25,327 nt of DNA from a virus (Duplodnaviria; Heunggongvirae; Uroviricota; Caudoviricetes), in IMG/VR virus record IMGVR_UViG_2671180357_000004, positions 1 through 25,327 of that record; one strand, written 5' to 3'. Both the position numbers and the translations under genes were made by a program. The notes under the pieces are model-generated. The model was given only the letters and a program-made list of their open reading frames with translations, had not been told where the DNA came from and did no database searches. Shown here in pieces: positions 10,456-18,474 of this stretch (positions are counted from its first letter, which is position 1; each line of letters starts with the position of its first letter).

Positions 10456-10722
10456 TTTTAACTCCTTATGTTTTCGTTGGTGCATTTCCGCGTTTTGGTT
10501 GAGCTTATTCTGGCAAAACCTATCAGGCAGAAACGTCATAACTACAGGCAGCAAAATAAACTCAAGGCAACTCTACTATCTTGTTCAAAGGAGTTAACTC
10601 GTCTTAAAATTGAATACAAAAGTTCACGTCTAGATAAAATACACAACACCACCACATCATAGGCAAACACTTAAAACGTGTCCTACACATAAAGCATCAC
10701 TAAGCGGTTAATTAGCTTTCAC

Positions 10723-10751
10723 TTGCCTTGCGAATTTTTCTGCCTGATAAT
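10723..10751 (+). promoter_or_regulatory. Candidate sigma70 promoter for the HNH-domain gene
   Basis: TTGCCT (10723-10728), 17-bp spacer, GATAAT (10746-10751); 40 bp upstream of the GTG at 10791. Confidence 0.4.
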
Positions 10752-10790
10752 GTGCATTGATAATAATTCATTAATGAATAGGGCATAATA

Positions 10791-11813
10791 GTGAACAGTG
10801 ATAAGCGGAAACTTTATGTAAATACTCTAGCATTAGATTTGAATATCAAGCCATCCAGACCCTATTACCAAATATTATTAAAAACGATAAAAAAGAAAGT
10901 AGCCGATGGGCAGTCAAAGGCTGAAATCGTCGCTTCTATAAAGAACTCGAAAGAGCACCTTGCCAACATCACACCAACCGGTATTATCAACCATCAGAAA
11001 CAAAATATTAGCTTCAAAAAGACGATGCGCAGTTCTTCCGTTCGGGATGACCTACGTAAGCGAAGAATTGAGTACGTTTTAGAAAAGCGGGAGCTGGAAG
11101 CAAAGGATCGCGCAGCGCGAAAAGAACAAGATGAGAAACGTAAAGCTCTTGAAAAAATCAGGATGGAAAACTTACCTGAAATAGTAGAGAACTGCATCGA
11201 CTTTTCTAAACGTCGTGATTTCCAATTATGGTTTCACCGCACTGGTCAGTATCTGAACACCAGTGCTCAAGGCATTGTTAATGAATTCCTAGCTGAATTC
11301 AAAATTGAAAACCCCATAGTAAAAGCAGAGATTAAATTAATTGGGTCTCCTGAAACTCCTCTTATTGTTACCCAACTACCAATAGAGACTAAGAAAGTTG
11401 AATTTATACCCCAACCACTTCCGTCGAAAAGAGTAGGTGAAAAAGTAACGATTACCAGTCGCCCAGATCAGGCTAAATTCGCAGACTCCGTGGGGGTAAA
11501 CTGCCGCTATACCTGCGTTGTTACTGGTGTCAAAACCAGAGTGCGCTGTGAGGCTGCCCATATCGTTGAGCACAAAGCAGGAGGCGTAGACCATTATACA
11601 AATGGGCTATGGTTGCGAGTGGACATTCACCGTTTATTTGATGCCGGTTTATGCGCAATAGAGCCGTCGACAATGATGATCTACTTTAACCCGATGGTGT
11701 TGATCGACGACCCTGATTTGGAAAAATACCACGCTATCCCCATCTCTCAACCGGTTCGCCCGATAAATCCTGACTACCTTATGGCACGCTGGACGATCTT
11801 CAACATCCGATAG
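10791..11813 (+). CDS. HNH nuclease-domain protein (340 aa; uncharacterised N-terminal region plus C-terminal HNH core)
   Basis: C-terminus CVVTGVKTRVRCEAAHIVEHKAGGVDHYTNGLWLRVDIHRLFDAG matches the Cys...His...N...H...D HNH pattern. Only + strand gene in the phage-like block; visibly AT-rich; GTG start. Confidence 0.7.
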   Translation: MNSDKRKLYVNTLALDLNIKPSRPYYQILLKTIKKKVADGQSKAEIVASIKNSKEHLANITPTGIINHQKQNISFKKTMRSSSVRDDLRKRRIEYVLEKRELEAKDRAARKEQDEKRKALEKIRMENLPEIVENCIDFSKRRDFQLWFHRTGQYLNTSAQGIVNEFLAEFKIENPIVKAEIKLIGSPETPLIVTQLPIETKKVEFIPQPLPSKRVGEKVTITSRPDQAKFADSVGVNCRYTCVVTGVKTRVRCEAAHIVEHKAGGVDHYTNGLWLRVDIHRLFDAGLCAIEPSTMMIYFNPMVLIDDPDLEKYHAIPISQPVRPINPDYLMARWTIFNIR

Positions 11814-11815
11814 CT

Positions 11816-12376
11816 CTAACGTTCGGTCCTTTCGAAAGGAAGTTTGAAGAAGCCGTATTTCTCTCGGGCTTTGAAGAAACACTGCATCATCAGATCAGTA
11901 TCGTAGAGAGCACTGTGGGCTTTCTCACGGTCGTAAGTGAACCCAAGTGAGAATGCCAGCTCTTCCAGGCGTGGGCGCTTCCCATCCTCGGTAGCCCACA
12001 GGGAAAATAGAGTGTCAACCAGAGGGATTTCTGGCAATTTCACTCCATAGCTTCCGAACTCGTGGCGAATGAACGGAAGGTCAAAAGCCTCCCCGTTATG
12101 GGCGACTAACGCGCTACATGCCCCCATATATGCAGCAATCTTACCTGCGTGATCAGCCAACAGCGGTTCAGCAGCCAGTTCTTCCAGAGATATACCATGT
12201 ACAGCCTGCGCCTTCGGATCGATGCTACGACGCGGGTTGAAGCGCATCTCAAGGCTGTCAATGCGCTTCTGGGTTTCCAGTTCATAACGAGATATCGCGA
12301 TTTCGATAATTTTGTGGCCGGATGTGAAGTCCAGCCCCGTGGACTCAATATCGACGCCACCGACAATCGTGGTCAT
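11816..12376 (-). CDS. DnaQ-like 3'-5' exonuclease (DEDDh family)
   Basis: Exo I VDIESTGLD, Exo II HNGEAFDLPF, Exo III HSALYDTDL; SD AAGGAG; ATG at 12374-12376. Confidence 0.8.
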   Translation of the reverse strand: MTTIVGGVDIESTGLDFTSGHKIIEIAISRYELETQKRIDSLEMRFNPRRSIDPKAQAVHGISLEELAAEPLLADHAGKIAAYMGACSALVAHNGEAFDLPFIRHEFGSYGVKLPEIPLVDTLFSLWATEDGKRPRLEELAFSLGFTYDREKAHSALYDTDLMMQCFFKAREKYGFFKLPFERTER

Positions 12377-12385
12377 TGGTACTCC

Positions 12386-12805
12386 TTACAGCTTCTTCGC
12401 GCCTTTCAGCAGTGCGCCACGCACAAACTGAGCAGCCTTTTTTAGTGCGTCCTCGCCGCTTTCGCAGACGACCGGCTCACGCCATTCGCCCGTTGACGTG
12501 TTGAGGAGCTGGATTTGGTTAGTCTCCAGGCAAACGGACACATACAAAACCGTACCGCCCGAGAGTTTGAGATGCATAGGAAACAGAGAGCGCTTGGTGC
12601 CGCCATTGAATTGCGACATCGCCGCATTAATGGCTTCACCAACCTCTTCCCCAACAAGACCTTGAACGGACTCAAACACTGCTCGGATAGCCAGACGTGC
12701 TTCACGTTCACTCATTAAGGAACGGGATTGTTCGTCAGCAATACGGATCAGTGCTTCAATCGCTTTGCGATCTAATTCATCCGACAGGGGAAGTTCATCT
12801 ATCAT
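12386..12805 (-). CDS. Hypothetical protein (139 aa from ATG at 12805)
   Basis: ATG MIDELPL with SD GAGGA; track ORF begins at an upstream TTG. Confidence 0.5.
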   Translation of the reverse strand: MIDELPLSDELDRKAIEALIRIADEQSRSLMSEREARLAIRAVFESVQGLVGEEVGEAINAAMSQFNGGTKRSLFPMHLKLSGGTVLYVSVCLETNQIQLLNTSTGEWREPVVCESGEDALKKAAQFVRGALLKGAKKL

Positions 12806-12868
12806 TCTGTTTTTCCTCAATTCATTTCGCGTGTCTTATTGTCACACTGCCCAACAGGGGAACAACAT

Positions 12869-13513
12869 TCAGTGGAAGGTCACTCGTCCTGTTATACGGC
12901 TCTCGATGTTTTCAGTGGCTCTTTCCAGCACACGCAATACCGATCTGGCTCGCGCCTCAACCGTGCGGCACTTTTCAGAGATAATGAAAACCTGCAAATC
13001 GCCGGTATGGGGAAGGGCACTAATTTTCGTCAGCTCGCCACACATAAGTGCATCGATGCGAGCAACATAGAGACGGTCAAGCGATCCTCGCTGGGGACGC
13101 GCGAGATCTTTGCTGGAAAGATCAACGCCCGGGCGAAGACCCGCTATAGCATTAAAGTTGGAAATGGCCGCTTTGTGGCAAAACTGCTCAATGTCGAGAG
13201 CCAGCTCGATGCAGCGGTCTTCGTTGGTCTGGCCGACCAGGTCAAGCGTATAAGCCATGACATCGGCTGGCGTGCGGTCGATGACAAAACCTTCAACGCC
13301 GCGGGTGATCATCTCGATGTGTCTGGCAATCTCCATCTGAACCTGAAGACGCTCGTAAAGGGGCAAACGCTCGCCAACCTTCACCCCCAGACTGCTCATC
13401 AGCTTGCCAACACCAGCATCCACATACGGAATGCCATAGTGCGCATCGATGTACCTTGCCAGGGTTGTTTTCCCACTGCCCTGTGCGCCAGTGATTCCAA
13501 TCCGGTAATCCAT
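12869..13513 (-). CDS. P-loop nucleotide kinase, dNMP kinase-like
   Basis: Walker A IGITGAQGSGKTTLA near N-terminus; overall pattern recalled as resembling phage dNMP kinases; start overlaps the DHFR stop (TAATG). Confidence 0.55.
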   Translation of the reverse strand: MDYRIGITGAQGSGKTTLARYIDAHYGIPYVDAGVGKLMSSLGVKVGERLPLYERLQVQMEIARHIEMITRGVEGFVIDRTPADVMAYTLDLVGQTNEDRCIELALDIEQFCHKAAISNFNAIAGLRPGVDLSSKDLARPQRGSLDRLYVARIDALMCGELTKISALPHTGDLQVFIISEKCRTVEARARSVLRVLERATENIESRITGRVTFH

Positions 13514-13989
13514 TACGACCTTCTGTATACGATCTGCAAAAAGCCAGGCTCATCCTCATTTGCACGTTGGGTATAAGCCGTTTCGACTGGTACGAACCCT
13601 AAAGAACGCATCATTGGCGCCGGGAAGAACGCATCCGCGCCCGACACATCCACGCCAATATGCGACAGCCAGATCTCTTCAACGTGTGGCATAAAGAGCG
13701 AGTAAATCTGCCCGCCACCAATCACCCAGACCGGATCTGGTAGTTTTAAAACGTCATCGATGCCAGCGGGGTAGAAACCATTGGGGATATAACCACGAGA
13801 GCGCGTCAAAACGAGGTTATGGCGCTCTGGCAGCGGGCGTTTGAGACTTTCCATCGTCTTACGTCCCATCACGACAGTGGCGTTTTTGGTGAGTTGTTTG
13901 AACAGTTTCAGATCGGTCGGGCAACGCCAGGGAAGTTCGTTGCCAATGCCGATTTCATAGTTGCGGCCGACAGCTGCAATCATCTTCAT
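13513..13989 (-). CDS. folA: Dihydrofolate reductase
   Basis: IGIGNELPWRCPTDLKLFKQLT, VVMGRKTMESL, VIGGGQIY align to E. coli FolA; 158 aa. Confidence 0.85.
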   Translation of the reverse strand: MKMIAAVGRNYEIGIGNELPWRCPTDLKLFKQLTKNATVVMGRKTMESLKRPLPERHNLVLTRSRGYIPNGFYPAGIDDVLKLPDPVWVIGGGQIYSLFMPHVEEIWLSHIGVDVSGADAFFPAPMMRSLGFVPVETAYTQRANEDEPGFLQIVYRRS

Positions 13990-14399
13990 TGGCTTACCTC
14001 ATAGATGGTTGGTCGCTGGTGAGAATCTGCCAGCGCAGAACGCAGACGCGGATCATGAACCAGTGCGGCGATAAGTAAGTCGCCTTTGTGCTCTGCCAGC
14101 GTGCGCTTGATATGGGTTTCAAAACTGACACCGCGCGGAACCAGGTGGAGCCAGTCATAATCAATGCCGAAGTCCTTCAGCCAGCGCTTGGTTGGGCCTT
14201 CGAGCGCTTCCGGACGACTACTGATAAGCACCACTTCAGCACCGGAGCGAGCAAAACCACGCAACATGCGGCTGGTGGGAAAGATGAGTTCATCACCGGC
14301 AATAAGAGCGCCTGCATCCGCATCAGGCACTGCTTTGCGATGGCTGGCTCTCGCCAGCACACCTTCAATTTCACACAACACATACATCCCTCTGGCCAT
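13986..14399 (-). CDS. Hypothetical protein (137 aa from ATG at 14399); weak HAD-like pattern
   Basis: ATG 1 nt after the thyA stop; stop overlaps the DHFR start (ATGA). MYVLCEIEGVL resembles HAD motif I but with Cys/Glu in place of the Asp residues, so function is uncertain. Confidence 0.4.
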   Translation of the reverse strand: MARGMYVLCEIEGVLARASHRKAVPDADAGALIAGDELIFPTSRMLRGFARSGAEVVLISSRPEALEGPTKRWLKDFGIDYDWLHLVPRGVSFETHIKRTLAEHKGDLLIAALVHDPRLRSALADSHQRPTIYEVSQ

Positions 14400-14400
14400 A

Positions 14401-15516
14401 TCACACCGCCACTGGAACCTTGATCCACGGAAGAGGGCTGTAGCCGCACACCTGCACACCTTCCCATTTGAAGTCGTCCAGTTCGGCCCATTCATGCGGG
14501 AAGATGACAACCGGGTCGGACTCTTTGGGCGGCTCGCGCTTCATCAGTTCCTCAACGCCTTCCATGTGGTTGTCGTAGAGATGAACGTCAAAGCCAAAAT
14601 GCACGAATGCGCCAGCCATGTGGCCGGTGATCTTCGCGAGGAAGTGGGTGAGAATGCCGTAACCGGCGATGTTGAACGGCATACCAACAAAGGTATCGAC
14701 ACTGCGTTGAACCAGGCATGAGTTCAGAATGCGTTTCGGGATGCCCAGCTCGTCCAGCATGTTCTCAGTAATGCCGCCATCTCTTTCCAGAAGACACAGC
14801 ATCTGGGTGTAAATGGACTCGTGGCCGTGGCGGTTGTGCTGTATGCCAATGTCGGTGGCCATAGTCAGTCGGGTCTCAAAGTCCAGCTCGCGACTCCACA
14901 GTGAAAACACGAAATGGCATGGCGGCAGCTTCATATCTTCCAGTTCGCCAACATTCCAGGCATTCAGCAGGATGCGACGATCTGTAGGGTTGGTGCGAAG
15001 CGTGTCAACGATACGCTGTAGCTGGTCAATTTCACGGGACAACACAACGCGATCTTCACTTACGCCCAGATACCCCTCGACCTTGTACCCGCGCTCACGG
15101 AACGTGTCGATTTTGCGCAGATACTCGCTATGGCTCACGATGCGAGTGTCTTCCCACCGACGCCATTGCTTGCCATAGACCGGGCCTAAATCGCCATTTT
15201 CATCGGCCCAGGCATCCCAGATTTTGACGCCATTGTCTTTCAGGAACTGGATGTTGCCTGTTCCTTTGAGATACCACTCCAGCTCAACCAGTAACGGCTT
15301 CAGATTGACGGCTTTTCCGGAGATAAGTGGAACAGATCCGCCCGTCAGCATGTAGTAGGAAGGGACATATGAAACACTTTTTGTGCCGGTTCCGGTGCGA
15401 TCACCCGCGTGAACGCCAGTGTTGAGCACCGTTTCAACCACTTTGGCATACGAACCACTGGCAAACTGACCGTTCGTAAAGTCTCGATTCAGTAGGATAG
15501 ACAAAATCAACCTCAC
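14401..15516 (-). CDS. thyA: Thymidylate synthase (ThyA family) with two internal insertions
   Basis: DRTGTGT, WADENGDLGPVYGKQWR, RRILLNAWNVGELEDMKLPPCHF, QRSVDTFVGMPFNIAGY, PWIKVPVAV. 371 codons vs about 264 in E. coli ThyA; start codon uncertain (GTG at 15516, or TTG a few codons downstream). Confidence 0.85.
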   Translation of the reverse strand: MRLILSILLNRDFTNGQFASGSYAKVVETVLNTGVHAGDRTGTGTKSVSYVPSYYMLTGGSVPLISGKAVNLKPLLVELEWYLKGTGNIQFLKDNGVKIWDAWADENGDLGPVYGKQWRRWEDTRIVSHSEYLRKIDTFRERGYKVEGYLGVSEDRVVLSREIDQLQRIVDTLRTNPTDRRILLNAWNVGELEDMKLPPCHFVFSLWSRELDFETRLTMATDIGIQHNRHGHESIYTQMLCLLERDGGITENMLDELGIPKRILNSCLVQRSVDTFVGMPFNIAGYGILTHFLAKITGHMAGAFVHFGFDVHLYDNHMEGVEELMKREPPKESDPVVIFPHEWAELDDFKWEGVQVCGYSPLPWIKVPVAV

Positions 15517-15521
15517 ACAAG

Positions 15522-15540
15522 ATAAGTAAGTACATACATA
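15522..15540. repeat. AT-rich dyad motif, copy E (ATAAGTAAGTACATACATA; degenerate)
   Basis: Between the terminator at 15591-15621 and the thyA start. Confidence 0.4.
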
Positions 15541-15590
15541 TTATTTTATGCAAGTTTATCTGTCAGAAGTGTGTAAGGCTAGGAGGGGAG

Positions 15591-15621
15591 TAAAAAAAAT
15601 GGTGGCTCTTCGGCCACCATT
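15591..15621 (-). terminator. Rho-independent terminator (- strand)
   Basis: On the - strand: AATGGTGGC-cgaaga-GCCACCATT hairpin followed by U8. Confidence 0.6.
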
Positions 15622-15674
15622 GCAATGAGCAATTAAGAACTTGGACAATAAAACACGCCAAGGCAATATATAAT

Positions 15675-15691
15675 GATAAGTACTCACTTAC
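15675..15691. repeat. AT-rich dyad motif, copy F (GATAAGTACTCACTTAC)
   Basis: Overlaps the stop codon of the 15684..16562 gene. Confidence 0.4.
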
Positions 15692-16562
15692 AATTATTTT
15701 TTACCATCTCGTAAAGAGATGAGGACTTCGCCTTCTCAACAAAGCAAGTCAGATCCACATCGCTGTAGGTGGGAGATTTGAGGATCTTGCCATCAGAAAC
15801 CCTGAAACCGATCATCATGTCAGTCCCTTCAGCATGGCGGAACCCCAGATCTTCCTTATCGTATTTGCAATTCTCTACCGCCACACGACGCTCTTCGGCG
15901 TCAGCCGGCCACAGCTTGGTCATGTTGGAACGGTGGATTTCTGCCACCAGCTCAACAATATCGATTCCGAGAAAATCAGCCAGACGGTAGGTCATCATGC
16001 AGGCAACGTAGATTTTGTTCATCACGCGGCGCAGCTCCTGCACCAATTCGGAATCGCTTATCGGCTTCGCTTCAAGTTTGTCAGCCAGCGCATTCAGCAT
16101 TAATGCAGCTTCTTTTGCTTCTTCAAACGGGATAGCCATATCGTCAAAGACCGTGTTGCCCGGAACCATGATGGTGTGGATGAAGCGATCAACACTCTGC
16201 TCTTGGGTGTAGTAACTCATGCCCGTCGAGATGCCGCCTTTGATGGCCACCATTGTGCCGACGCCCACGTAAAGGAAGTCAGCCATCGCGTCCAGCAGTG
16301 CCGTCATATCCCCATTTTTGGCTGCCGGGATGCCCTCGGTAACTGCTTCTTCGTGGATCAGCTTGGCACGCAGACGTAGTAATGCCGGATCTGGAATGGC
16401 ACGGCGTGGGTGCTGAAACAGTGTGTGGAACTGGTCAACCATCAGGTAGATGCTTTCCGTTGTCTTGCCGAAACCGGGATTCAACTCGTAAGGCTCTGGT
16501 TTAAACCCCACGAGTTTGTCTGCGGCAAGTTTCAGATGATCGGTCAGTTTCGTAAATTTCAT
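15684..16562 (-). CDS. Hypothetical protein (292 aa); tentatively an all-alpha NTP pyrophosphohydrolase (MazG-like)
   Basis: ATG with SD AAGGAAAG; segments LIHEEAVTEGIPAAKNGDMTALLDAMADFLYV and YRLADFLGIDIVELVAEIHRSNMTKL resemble MazG-type motifs (weak, from memory). Confidence 0.45.
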   Translation of the reverse strand: MKFTKLTDHLKLAADKLVGFKPEPYELNPGFGKTTESIYLMVDQFHTLFQHPRRAIPDPALLRLRAKLIHEEAVTEGIPAAKNGDMTALLDAMADFLYVGVGTMVAIKGGISTGMSYYTQEQSVDRFIHTIMVPGNTVFDDMAIPFEEAKEAALMLNALADKLEAKPISDSELVQELRRVMNKIYVACMMTYRLADFLGIDIVELVAEIHRSNMTKLWPADAEERRVAVENCKYDKEDLGFRHAEGTDMMIGFRVSDGKILKSPTYSDVDLTCFVEKAKSSSLYEMVKNNCK

Positions 16563-16763
16563 GTTTTCTTTCCTTTAGACTTCTTTTGATACGCCAATTT
16601 TGACCCAGCAGCGCCAGGCCACAAAGTGGTTAAACTCGGCTTAGAGGTATTCGAACTGGCTCGGGCCAGTGCAATCGACAGCGAACTTTGTCAGCGCTTC
16701 ATGCAGCTGGCAGCGGCTCGGTGGGCGTTACGTTTTACGATGCTTATTATGTGTAGCCCAATT

Positions 16764-16789
16764 AAAAAGACCACTATATATAGTGGTCT
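16764..16789 (-). terminator. Rho-independent terminator (- strand)
   Basis: 20-bp perfect palindrome GACCACTATATATAGTGGTC followed on the - strand by TTTTT. Confidence 0.5.
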
Positions 16790-16796
16790 CATGGTA

Positions 16797-16816
16797 ATAG
16801 ATAAGCACTTACCTAT
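16797..16816. repeat. AT-rich dyad motif, copy G (ATAGATAAGCACTTACCTAT)
   Basis: Between the RuvC-like gene stop and the terminator. Confidence 0.5.
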
Positions 16817-16827
16817 CAATTATCAAC

Positions 16828-17397
16828 TTATAAAATTCCAGCAAGAACATCGCGAACCTGACGGAATTGATCAGTTTGCATACCGGTGTAAATCGATGCG
16901 ACAGCGTCCGCAAGGTGCTCGTTTTTATTCACCAGCACTTCCTTGCCCGATTGCTTCCGGCGCAACCACGGGGCGTTTGGCTGCTTCTGCGTAGCCCACT
17001 GAATGATCTCTTCTTTCGACGTAGTCAGCTTATTCCCGACATAGTACTTAATCTCGTTTGGCGTGACCTGTATCAGTGGCTTATCCACACACGCCAGTAC
17101 GCCAAGACAACCACCATAAGAAACCATCGCTCTAGCAGATTGACTGCCTACTGGCAGTTCACAGAACACTAAATGAACTTGGTCAATCAGTGGCTTAATA
17201 CCACGCCAAATCTCGTTCAACCGCCGCATATCGTCACTGTTAACGCGAACTTGCTTTTTCGTATCACCAGCTTTCGTCTCAATGAGATGCAACTTATTGA
17301 CCTGCAATGCACCTGAATCCAGTTCTATTTCTCCGATGGCAACGCCAAAATTTGACAGAGATGGATCGAGACCTGCAACTTTGATTACTTTTTTCAC
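16828..17397 (-). CDS. RuvC-like Holliday junction resolvase
   Basis: KVAGLDPSLSNFGVAIG, LVFCELPVGSQSARAMVSYGGCLGVLACV, NEHLADAVASIYTG resemble RuvC catalytic regions; GTG start with SD GGAGG. Confidence 0.65.
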   Translation of the reverse strand: MKKVIKVAGLDPSLSNFGVAIGEIELDSGALQVNKLHLIETKAGDTKKQVRVNSDDMRRLNEIWRGIKPLIDQVHLVFCELPVGSQSARAMVSYGGCLGVLACVDKPLIQVTPNEIKYYVGNKLTTSKEEIIQWATQKQPNAPWLRRKQSGKEVLVNKNEHLADAVASIYTGMQTDQFRQVRDVLAGIL

Positions 17398-17591
17398 TCT
17401 GTGACCTCCATTTCAACAAAATGCGGTAGATTGTGCTCTTCGATAAATCGCTTACGCGCTAAGTAAGCCTCCAATTCATCGTGACATTGATACAAGAAGA
17501 CACACTCTCCTTTCCACACAACTCTAGCAACCCAAACCTTGTTCGTTTTGCAGTAATGAACGCCAGTAAACTTCGACGTACTACCATCCAC
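17394..17591 (-). CDS. Small AP2-like DNA-binding domain protein (65 aa)
   Basis: GVHYCKTNKVWVARVVWKGECVFLYQCHDELEAYLAR resembles the AP2 fold pattern; GTG start with SD AAGGGAAA; stop overlaps the RuvC-like start (GTGA). Confidence 0.45.
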   Translation of the reverse strand: MDGSTSKFTGVHYCKTNKVWVARVVWKGECVFLYQCHDELEAYLARKRFIEEHNLPHFVEMEVTE

Positions 17592-17727
17592 TTTCCCTTG
17601 TTTATTTGCACTCTGGACGTGCTTGTCAGCCCACCTCAGATTCCCTGGTTCATATCCCTTGCTGGAGTCGATGCGATCAAGCGTAACCCCCTCTACAACT
17701 CTCTCCGTATCGGAAATTTTGGTCTCC

Positions 17728-18474
17728 TTACCACGTAGCCCAGGTTGGGCATTCCATTAGTTTCTGTTCAAGTGTCTTCTCCGGCTCGCGAGTTGGCGGC
17801 TTCGGAATGTCGTTAACTACGTGAATGCCATCGTTGATCAGAACGCCTGCAGCAATATCTGCATCAATCATGCTCTGGCCGATGAAATGCCGCATGATGT
17901 CAATAAGTTGGCACGCAGCCTTTTCATTCGCGTTGAATACGTGGGGGAGGAGAACTTCAATAATCGCTACTTCACATCCCTTCTCGTAAAAGCAGAGTTT
18001 CGCCCGCTTTGAAATTGGCGCGTGCCGGTCATAGTCAACAGAGAAGCTGGCGAAGGCAGCACCCGGCATTGCAACGTGATCCGCGCGTGCGTTAGCGTGT
18101 CGAATCAGATTAGTGAATGCGGTGCTGATGTGCGTCTCCATTGCATTGAAGAGTGCATTTTCTTGGATGTTCAGCGTTCCGGTTTCAGGAATCACAACGA
18201 ACCCCGGCCCAGAATGTGGGAGATATCCACCTTCCGTAAATGGATTAATAAGGATCGGCGCAGTGCTTCCTGACGGCAGATTAGCCAAGCTCGGCATCAA
18301 AGGAGTCGATGACAATAGATTGGTTAATACCGAGAACTGGTCGTCGCTGATGTTTACGTTTTTCCACAAAAGTGCAGGCGGAGTTACTTTTGCTGTATGG
18401 TTGTTTATCAGCTTTATAGACTGCATCACGGCAAACATCTGCAAAAACTGCGTGCGGCTCAAGTTAAACGACAT
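17728..18474 (-). CDS. Hypothetical protein (248 aa)
   Basis: ATG with SD AGAGGGG; no recognisable domain. Confidence 0.5.
   Translation of the reverse strand: MSFNLSRTQFLQMFAVMQSIKLINNHTAKVTPPALLWKNVNISDDQFSVLTNLLSSTPLMPSLANLPSGSTAPILINPFTEGGYLPHSGPGFVVIPETGTLNIQENALFNAMETHISTAFTNLIRHANARADHVAMPGAAFASFSVDYDRHAPISKRAKLCFYEKGCEVAIIEVLLPHVFNANEKAACQLIDIMRHFIGQSMIDADIAAGVLINDGIHVVNDIPKPPTREPEKTLEQKLMECPTWATW

Follow-up and report, generated by a model that had tools for sequence, protein, structure and literature searches.

Thymidylate synthase (TS) is among the classic enzymes of biochemistry textbooks, serves as a drug target, and has been solved structurally hundreds of times; it is a folate enzyme that yields dihydrofolate (DHF), and its C-terminal tail closes over the folate for hydride transfer. 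Relative to Escherichia coli ThyA (PDB 1an5/2tsc; 264 aa; its residue numbers are given below with the prefix Ec), extra segments are known from several family members. The Lactobacillus casei enzyme (PDB 1lca; 316 aa) is fully active despite a 50-residue insertion after Ec N87, in the small domain, that forms extra surface structure, and the same site holds 8 aa in T4 TS and 12 aa in human TS (PDB 1hw3; 313 aa), the latter also bearing an 8-aa eukaryotic insert at about residues 146-153. Here we describe a TS gene from a 25,327-nt stretch of DNA of a Caudoviricetes virus (IMG/VR record IMGVR_UViG_2671180357_000004, positions 1 to 25,327), hereafter the window, whose product carries two in-frame insertions at sites other than the one after Ec N87. 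Insertion 1 coincides with the 8-aa human insert and is 34 aa in the window, whereas at the site of insertion 2 nothing comparable is present in human, E. coli, L. casei, or T4 TS or in any chain of solved structure. Fold, residues, phylogeny, and operon layout all indicate that the protein is very probably a catalytically competent classical ThyA. The insertions are probably ancient and typical of their lineage, folding independently as surface elaborations on the tips of loops and hairpins, and would leave the active-site chemistry unchanged.

By nucleotide identity, the window is an SSU5/pHCM2-type phage-plasmid of Enterobacteriaceae (E. coli): positions 12800-16600 are 97.7% identical to Salmonella phage SSU5, and over its full length the window matches E. 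coli plasmids of about 106-120 kb at 98-99% identity. The window TS shares 99.5% amino acid identity with SSU5_081 (gp081, 367 aa), and the SSU5/pHCM2-type ThyA is essentially the same protein in the same operon, the difference being that nrdA-nrdB lie upstream of the module in SSU5 only. SSU5_081 already carries a thymidylate synthase annotation, as do the corresponding genes in many related plasmid records. An initial annotation of the window gave the gene 371 codons, which holds for the open reading frame (ORF) from its GTG; the TTG start, which gives 367 aa, is more likely because a GAGG lies 6 nt upstream of it and because the SSU5 and pJN2-26 records use this start as well.

The window TS matched the Pfam family Thymidylat_synt (PF00303) in two stretches (E=3e-79, 266 bits, cut-off 24), PHROG 160 (E=3.5e-94), and the NCBIfam equivalog TIGR03284 thym_sym (220.8 bits, cut-off 108.35). 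Its best phmmer matches in the PDB were all ThyA (E down to 3e-64), aligned in three blocks (residues 22-123, 161-208, and 265-371) whose gaps are the two insertions. An AlphaFold2 (AF2) model of the protein reached a mean local confidence (pLDDT) of 92 and a predicted template-modeling (TM) score, pTM, of 0.91, and its core matched E. coli TS in Foldseek with E=7e-29 and a target-normalized TM of 0.93-0.94. In the core, the window TS is 44% identical to the E. coli and human enzymes and 34% identical to T4 Td, and E. coli ThyA differs in having neither the approximately 17-21-aa N-terminal extension of the window TS nor its insertions. Insertion lengths and residue matches are based on a MAFFT alignment of 121 ThyA-family sequences. 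Among the reference enzymes compared, E. coli, human, and L. casei TS were entered by hand (the human and L. casei sequences being exact matches to PDB 1hw3_A and 1lca_A), and T4 Td was spliced in silico.

In this alignment all 14 landmarks that we compared are the same as in E. coli ThyA (R21, E58, W80, W83, Y94, R126, R127, C146, H147, R166, D169, N177, H207, and Y209). The catalytic C200 and H201 and the phosphate-binding Arg quartet (R40, R180, R181, and R271, for Ec R21, R126, R127, and R166) are present and invariant in the subfamily; TS is an obligate homodimer with shared active sites, and the R180/R181 pair, which is donated to the partner subunit's active site, is conserved. The dUMP (deoxyuridine monophosphate) specificity set is likewise complete, with N282, D274, H312, and Y314 corresponding to Ec N177, D169, H207, and Y209, as are the folate-pocket and hydride-transfer residues E78, I99, W100, W103, Y114, L197, and F281 (Ec E58, I79, W80, W83, Y94, L143, and F176). 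The C-terminus, IKVPVAV, matches the TS tail of E. coli ThyA. A role in specificity has been described for E. coli N177 (PMC8670742), and judged from the alignment the Asn at this position excludes specificity for deoxycytidine monophosphate (dCMP). The initial reading of the gene as a ThyA homolog with two in-frame insertions and with its catalytic landmarks in place, among them the Asn of PFNIAGY and the Cys of PPCH, is thus borne out by Pfam, the phmmer blocks, and the alignment.

The genomic setting points the same way. From first to last gene, the TS operon encodes TS, a HAD-like protein, dihydrofolate reductase (DHFR), and a P-loop kinase-like protein. Its junctions are TGA-1nt-ATG between TS and the HAD-like gene (stop at 14401, start at 14399), an ATGA overlap between the HAD-like and DHFR genes, and a TAATG overlap between the DHFR and P-loop genes, and as read from these junctions TS leads a four-gene translationally coupled operon. 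DHFR does not adjoin TS as had been described, the 137-aa HAD/PNKP-like gene lying between them; it is nevertheless within the TS operon, and this is the arrangement expected of an enzyme that oxidizes its folate to DHF. The classical TS/DHFR cycle proposed at the outset is accordingly supported by residues, fold, phylogeny, the curated model score, and operon structure.

The alignment places insertion 1 between Ec W101 and D110, where the window TS has 42 residues and E. coli 8, and insertion 2 between Ec Y153 and Q163, where it has 60 and E. coli 9. The net gains of 34 and 51 aa agree with the earlier estimate of about 30 and 50 aa, located after GKQWRRW and PPCHF. AF2 modeled both insertions as well-ordered secondary structure (pLDDT 92-97). 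Insertion 1 is predicted to form a three-stranded beta meander (strands 120-128, 145-150, and 156-164) with two short helices within residues 129-141, and would extend the beta-ribbon at Ec 101-109. Insertion 2 is predicted to form three helices (213-229, 235-246, and 251-257) atop an elongated beta-hairpin (201-210/262-274), so that it would cap the distal tip of the Ec C146...R166 hairpin. Cys200 and Arg271 stand at the proximal ends of this hairpin, with insertion 2 starting 8 residues past Cys200 and ending 7 residues before Arg271 along the predicted strands; at approximately 3.3 Å per residue, the helical unit would sit roughly 25 Å from the active site.

Proteins of this kind were found well beyond the SSU5 group. 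Searching 5.8 billion proteins yielded a graded series of ThyAs of 320-378 aa, the insertions recur in many metagenomic phages, and tblastn detected the double-insert architecture in the jumbo phages SPN3US/SEGD1/SPFM, Erwinia Wellington/Machina/Asesino, and Cronobacter CR5. Both insertions occur in 69 of the 121 aligned sequences, insertion 1 alone in 10, insertion 2 alone in 2, and neither in 40. The SPN3US/SEGD1-, Wellington/Machina-, and CR5-type jumbo-phage enzymes (337-340 aa, 45-47% core identity) carry both insertions at the same sites with the same anchor motifs; they differ from the window TS in their insert interiors and in having no adjacent HAD-like/DHFR/AAA_28 operon, and their core is nearer to enterobacterial ThyA than that of the window TS is in a neighbor-joining (NJ) tree without bootstrap. 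The conserved pattern of insertion 1 is W-x-D-T/V-R/K-I/V-V ... G-Y ... G ... V-x-x-R/K-E-x-D-Q, and the anchor motifs of insertion 2 are S/T-R-E-L-x3-E/T-R ... L/M-D-x3-I/V-P-K/R-R-x-L. In structure searches, models of jumbo-phage TS in BFVD, such as the 457-aa enzyme of 201phi2-1, matched at a query-normalized TM of 0.82-0.84 versus 0.67 for insert-less TS, and among solved chains neither insertion was covered (query-normalized TM 0.67). A profile of insertion 2 alone (48 positions) gave 21 matches at E<=1e-3 among 1.84 billion representatives in a search that was underpowered, and 8 of the 10 matches checked were ThyA, so that neither the size of a family nor an origin of the insertion outside ThyA follows from it. 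We found no discussion of these insertions in the literature, and the double-insert TS is an undescribed but widespread, phage-specific structural variant of classical TS.

Several database entries for related enzymes showed features of their own. One metagenomic protein (P0126, 821 aa) is a ThyA with a LAGLIDADG-endonuclease intein directly before the catalytic Cys (…ALPP[C…HN]CHSFFQF…), and it also has an insertion at the L. casei site plus insertions 1 and 2; an intein abutting insertion 2 was considered for this protein and rejected, given its position directly before the Cys. For the SPN3US TS (locus L012, 6046-7062), the tblastn match begins 45 nt upstream of the annotated start, and the annotated protein is without the first conserved helix residues that align in other TSs, so the annotated start seems to be too far downstream. 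In Escherichia phage Cyrano (OV696614; locus L002, 4380-5483), the label 'ThyX Thymidylate synthase' is given to the orthologous ThyA-family gene, and that of 'ABC transporter ATP-binding protein' to the P-loop gene; the two labels look like misannotations.

The insertions, which nearly always co-occur, could form a dedicated interaction surface restricted to phage ThyAs, either an enlarged dimer or higher-order interface or a docking platform for a metabolon of thymidine monophosphate (dTMP) synthesis that would include DHFR, the kinase-like protein, or the replication machinery. We consider such a surface unlikely; the docking form would resemble the T4 deoxynucleoside triphosphate (dNTP)-synthetase complex or the channeling in protozoan DHFR-TS.

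The insertions might also be neutral or parasitic leftovers (a degenerate intein, intron, or mobile-element remnant, or a tolerated loop expansion) that serve no purpose themselves, with the enzyme working despite them. Selfish elements are known to invade TS genes, as illustrated by the T4 td group I intron and by the intein at the catalytic Cys of P0126; single-insert forms exist, the insertion interiors vary in sequence and in length (+0 to +36 and +0 to +64), and the middle of insertion 2 is poorly conserved. However, we detected no match to an Rfam family anywhere in the window, and therefore no annotated intron type accounts for the extra length of the TS. At 38-57 aa, the insertions are also far below intein size, and Pfam revealed no Hint, intein, or endonuclease domain in the window TS. 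The anchor motifs persist in clades whose cores are no more than about 45% identical to one another, both insertions are modeled as ordered, and they co-occur in 69 of the 81 insert-bearing sequences, a raw count in which phylogeny is not corrected for. Within the SSU5 clade, nonsynonymous divergence (dN) is 0.03-0.30 in the inserts versus 0.06-0.12 in the core, with synonymous divergence (dS) saturated; because of this saturation, dN/dS by the NG86 method was undefined in most comparisons and only the qualitative result dN << dS holds. Saturated synonymous sites alongside such insert dN values indicate that the insertions are translated and under purifying selection somewhat looser than that on the core. 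Leftovers of this kind are thus quite improbable.

The initial annotation had also left room for a modified-nucleotide function, in which the protein would be a pyrimidine hydroxymethylase or another base-modifying ThyA-fold enzyme (dUMP or dCMP hydroxymethylase, or dCMP methylase). In that case the pocket would be reshaped by the insertions so that water, not hydride, resolves the exocyclic methylene intermediate, and the MazG-like and P-loop proteins would serve as thymidine triphosphatase (dTTPase) and modified-deoxynucleoside monophosphate (dNMP) kinase, as in phages with hydroxymethyluracil (hmU). The gene company typical of the hmU pathway consists of dTMPase/dTTPase, dCMP deaminase, 5-hmdU DNA kinase, and hypermodification genes, and DHFR is not required. 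Phage ThyA-fold hydroxymethylases do exist and are often annotated as 'thymidylate synthase' (PMC8989533), the cluster includes a nucleoside triphosphate (NTP) pyrophosphohydrolase and a P-loop kinase-like gene, and SPO1 gp29 is likewise unusually long at 383 aa. We therefore compared the window TS with T4 gp42 (dCMP), SPO1 gp29 (dUMP), and the gp29 relatives PaMx11 gp51 and Det7 gp108. All four share the ThyA superfamily fold and the Cys nucleophile with the window TS, but core identity to them is 17-23%, versus 44% to E. coli and human TS; identity measured separately is 19-21% to gp29 (BLASTP E=0.002) and 19-24% to gp42.

These hydroxymethylases differ from the window TS at Ec 80, 83, 143, 147, 165, 172, and 176 (gp42 also at 177) and in their C-termini, and they have no insertions at either site. 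From three sequences (gp29, gp51, and gp108) we derived a dUMP hydroxymethylase signature, which has no published definition behind it: W80 deleted, W83F, L143D, H147N, Q165N, L172W, F176A/I, and a long non-TS C-terminus. None of the seven changes is found in the window TS, which has I79-W80, W83, L143, H147, Q165, V172, and F176 in E. coli numbering, and its TS tail is intact, without the long C-terminal helical extension of the gp29 type. T4 gp42 has N177D, H147T, and W83V where the window TS has Asn282, His201, and Trp103; thus the residue at Ec 177 is Asn and not Asp. The length of gp29 was considered as a sign of shared insertions and rejected, as its extra residues are C-terminal in the alignment and away from both insertion sites. 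In the NJ tree (core columns), all insert-bearing proteins branch within the radiation of canonical ThyAs, to which E. coli ThyA and T4 Td also belong, whereas T4 gp42 and SPO1 gp29 stand on long outgroup branches across a large distance gap, so the proposed phylogenetic comparison with hydroxymethylases came out in favor of a true TS.

The neighboring genes add to this contrast. DHFR is translationally coupled to the window gene and only a true TS oxidizes folate to DHF; other phages with these insertions have genes for DHFR and thymidylate kinase as well; and the few distant phage homologs of the P-loop protein are annotated as thymidylate kinase, with none in ViI-, M6-, or SPO1-type phages. 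No hypermodification enzyme was matched by Pfam, PHROG, or NCBIfam among ten neighboring ORFs scanned (window 10791-18474), and the MazG-like gene is compatible with the TS and hmU pathways alike. A base-modifying role for the window TS is therefore very unlikely, and the earlier caveat is now strongly disfavored.

E. coli and human TS are known to bind their own mRNA, which speaks for a protein of this fold having other functions. A catalytically dead or moonlighting TS homolog with a structural, regulatory, or RNA-binding role, conserved for its fold rather than its activity, is nonetheless extremely unlikely: T4 Td and Frd are cited in PMC7725336 as reported baseplate components, and the HAD-like neighbor seems to have lost its Asp nucleophile, such that operon members need not all be standard enzymes, but all catalytic and substrate residues are kept in a family diverged to about 40% identity, which is unexpected without selection for catalysis, and the gene is coupled to DHFR.

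Several points weigh against reading the protein as a classical TS with peripheral insertions in a pathway of thymidine triphosphate (dTTP) supply. The narrower NCBIfam ThyA (PRK01827) sub-models score below cut-off, e.g. NF002497 at 264 versus 327 bits, which fits a divergent, interrupted sequence but marks the protein as atypical among bacterial ThyAs, and one folate-pocket residue is conservatively changed (Ec L172 to Val). The catalytic Tyr114 (Ec Y94) precedes the start of insertion 1 by only 7 residues, and although the structure prediction suggested as a check does fold both insertions confidently, it places them relative to the active site by topology only, so we infer their peripheral position. 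Their most probable role is structural, in the form of extra subunit or partner contacts or stability, which is the default reading. For the neighbors, the likeness of the P-loop protein to nucleotide kinases is confined to the Walker A region, and by this weak similarity it is possibly a dTMP or dNMP kinase. The nearest solved relative of the MazG-like protein is DR2231, a dUTP-specific MazG-like enzyme, matched weakly (E about 1e-3) in two separated stretches; the window protein is about as long as two MazG domains of the DR2231 type, and the match fits a protein that may feed dUMP to TS. A literature search found no biochemical or genetic data for the window TS or any double-insert relative.

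Table 1. Coordinates of the TS gene, its insertions and key codons, and neighboring features in the window.
Feature	Positions	Strand	Remarks
Thymidylate synthase (ThyA family) ORF	14401..15516	-	371 codons from GTG at 15516; 367 aa from TTG at 15504
GAGG Shine-Dalgarno (15514-15511), 6-nt spacer, and TTG start codon (15504-15502)	15502..15514	-	read from the sequence
Insertion 1	15037..15153	-	about residues 122-160; +34 aa relative to E. coli ThyA loop 102-109
Insertion 2	14725..14895	-	residues 208-264; +51 aa relative to E. coli hairpin 154-159
Codon of catalytic nucleophile Cys200 (E. coli C146), in PPCH	14917..14919	-	invariant in alignments
Codon of Asn282 (E. coli N177), dUMP-versus-dCMP specificity residue, in PFNIAGY	14671..14673	-	from alignment
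HAD/PNKP-phosphatase-like protein, 137 aa	13986..14399	-	starts 1 nt past the TS stop codon
Dihydrofolate reductase, 158 aa	13513..13989	-	Pfam DHFR_1, E=4e-35
P-loop (AAA_28) nucleotide-kinase-like protein, 214 aa	12869..13513	-	TAATG overlap with DHFR
MazG-like/PRA-PH all-alpha NTP pyrophosphohydrolase, 292 aa	15684..16562	-	upstream transcription unit
Terminator-like hairpin, 9-bp stem and T7 tail	15598..15621	-	downstream of the MazG-like gene, upstream of TS
Sigma-70-like promoter match, CTGACA-17-TAATAT	15538..15566	-	ahead of TS; weak indication by itself, number of matches in the region not above shuffle expectation

The other features of the module are listed in Table 1. In the HAD-like protein, the nucleophile motif reads V-L-C-E-I-E-G-V, versus D-x-D-G-T in HAD phosphatases; the aligned motif is V-I-C-D-L-D-G-T in Pnkp1 and D-L-D-G in a Photobacterium relative, and another relative has neither, so by its motif the HAD-like protein may be an altered or inactive phosphatase. 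DHFR of the SSU5 clade has been tested and conferred no trimethoprim resistance (PMC7725336). The MazG-like gene, which had been placed two genes away, is actually the immediate upstream neighbor of TS, parted from it by the terminator-like hairpin. The TS-HAD-DHFR-AAA_28 block, with NrdAB and PRA-PH/MazG-like genes upstream, is kept in two further elements (L006 and L009) at 43-53% TS identity, and in other phages with a long TS the gene adjoins thymidylate kinase or NrdB. SPN3US-type phages also encode DHFR and Tmk (PMC6614189); Pfam scans of the TS-flanking genes in SPN3US, Wellington, and CR5 found neither DHFR nor HAD adjacent. A conserved TS-MazG linkage between SSU5-type elements and jumbo phages was considered and rejected, as the MazG-like proteins are barely similar (E 0.007-0.03).

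We also observed three differences from SSU5 around the module. The nrdB-nrdA pair, which lies between the MazG-like and RuvC-like genes in SSU5, pJN2-26, L006, and L009, is cleanly deleted in the window (about 3.48 kb; window 16683-16707 versus SSU5 locus L001 9889-13367), leaving remnants of approximately 43 nt of the nrdB 3' end and approximately 45 nt of the nrdA 5' end. At window positions 10551-11835, a 1.28-kb segment replaces 0.34 kb of SSU5 intergenic DNA and contains an ORF (10791-11813, plus strand) of 340 aa with a C-terminal HNH_2 endonuclease domain, on the strand opposite to all of its neighbors; this looks like a free-standing homing-endonuclease insertion. Window positions 17105-17717 also diverge from SSU5 and contain a 65-aa ORF (17394-17591, minus strand; …FTGVHYCKTNKVWVARVVWKGECVFLYQCHDELEAYLARKRF…) in which visual inspection suggests a stand-alone AP2-type DNA-binding domain such as those associated with homing endonucleases.

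We propose that the module operates as follows. Cys200 would attack C6 of dUMP, and 5,10-methylenetetrahydrofolate would give both the methylene and the hydride, resulting in dTMP and dihydrofolate. DHFR would regenerate tetrahydrofolate, the kinase-like P-loop protein may carry dTMP onward, and the upstream MazG-like pyrophosphohydrolase may supply dUMP from deoxyuridine triphosphate (dUTP). The TS operon and the MazG-like gene would then constitute an auxiliary dTTP-supply module for the replication of SSU5-type phage-plasmids, in which we infer the roles of the neighboring genes.

The finding suggests that the element is functionally ordinary in this respect, a phage-plasmid with its own TS/DHFR module that would boost dTTP supply. 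Its practical value is of a negative kind: the SSU5/pHCM2-type elements found widely in Enterobacteriaceae should not be counted as candidate base-modifying phages on account of their TS gene. The signature by which dUMP hydroxymethylases can be told apart from true TS may be used as an annotation rule, which is useful because databases call both 'thymidylate synthase'. Structurally, no solved TS covers the site of insertion 2, yet phage-plasmids and jumbo phages commonly carry the double-insert form; if the insertions do provide a docking or oligomerization surface, they would represent a new structural solution in one of the best-studied enzyme families.

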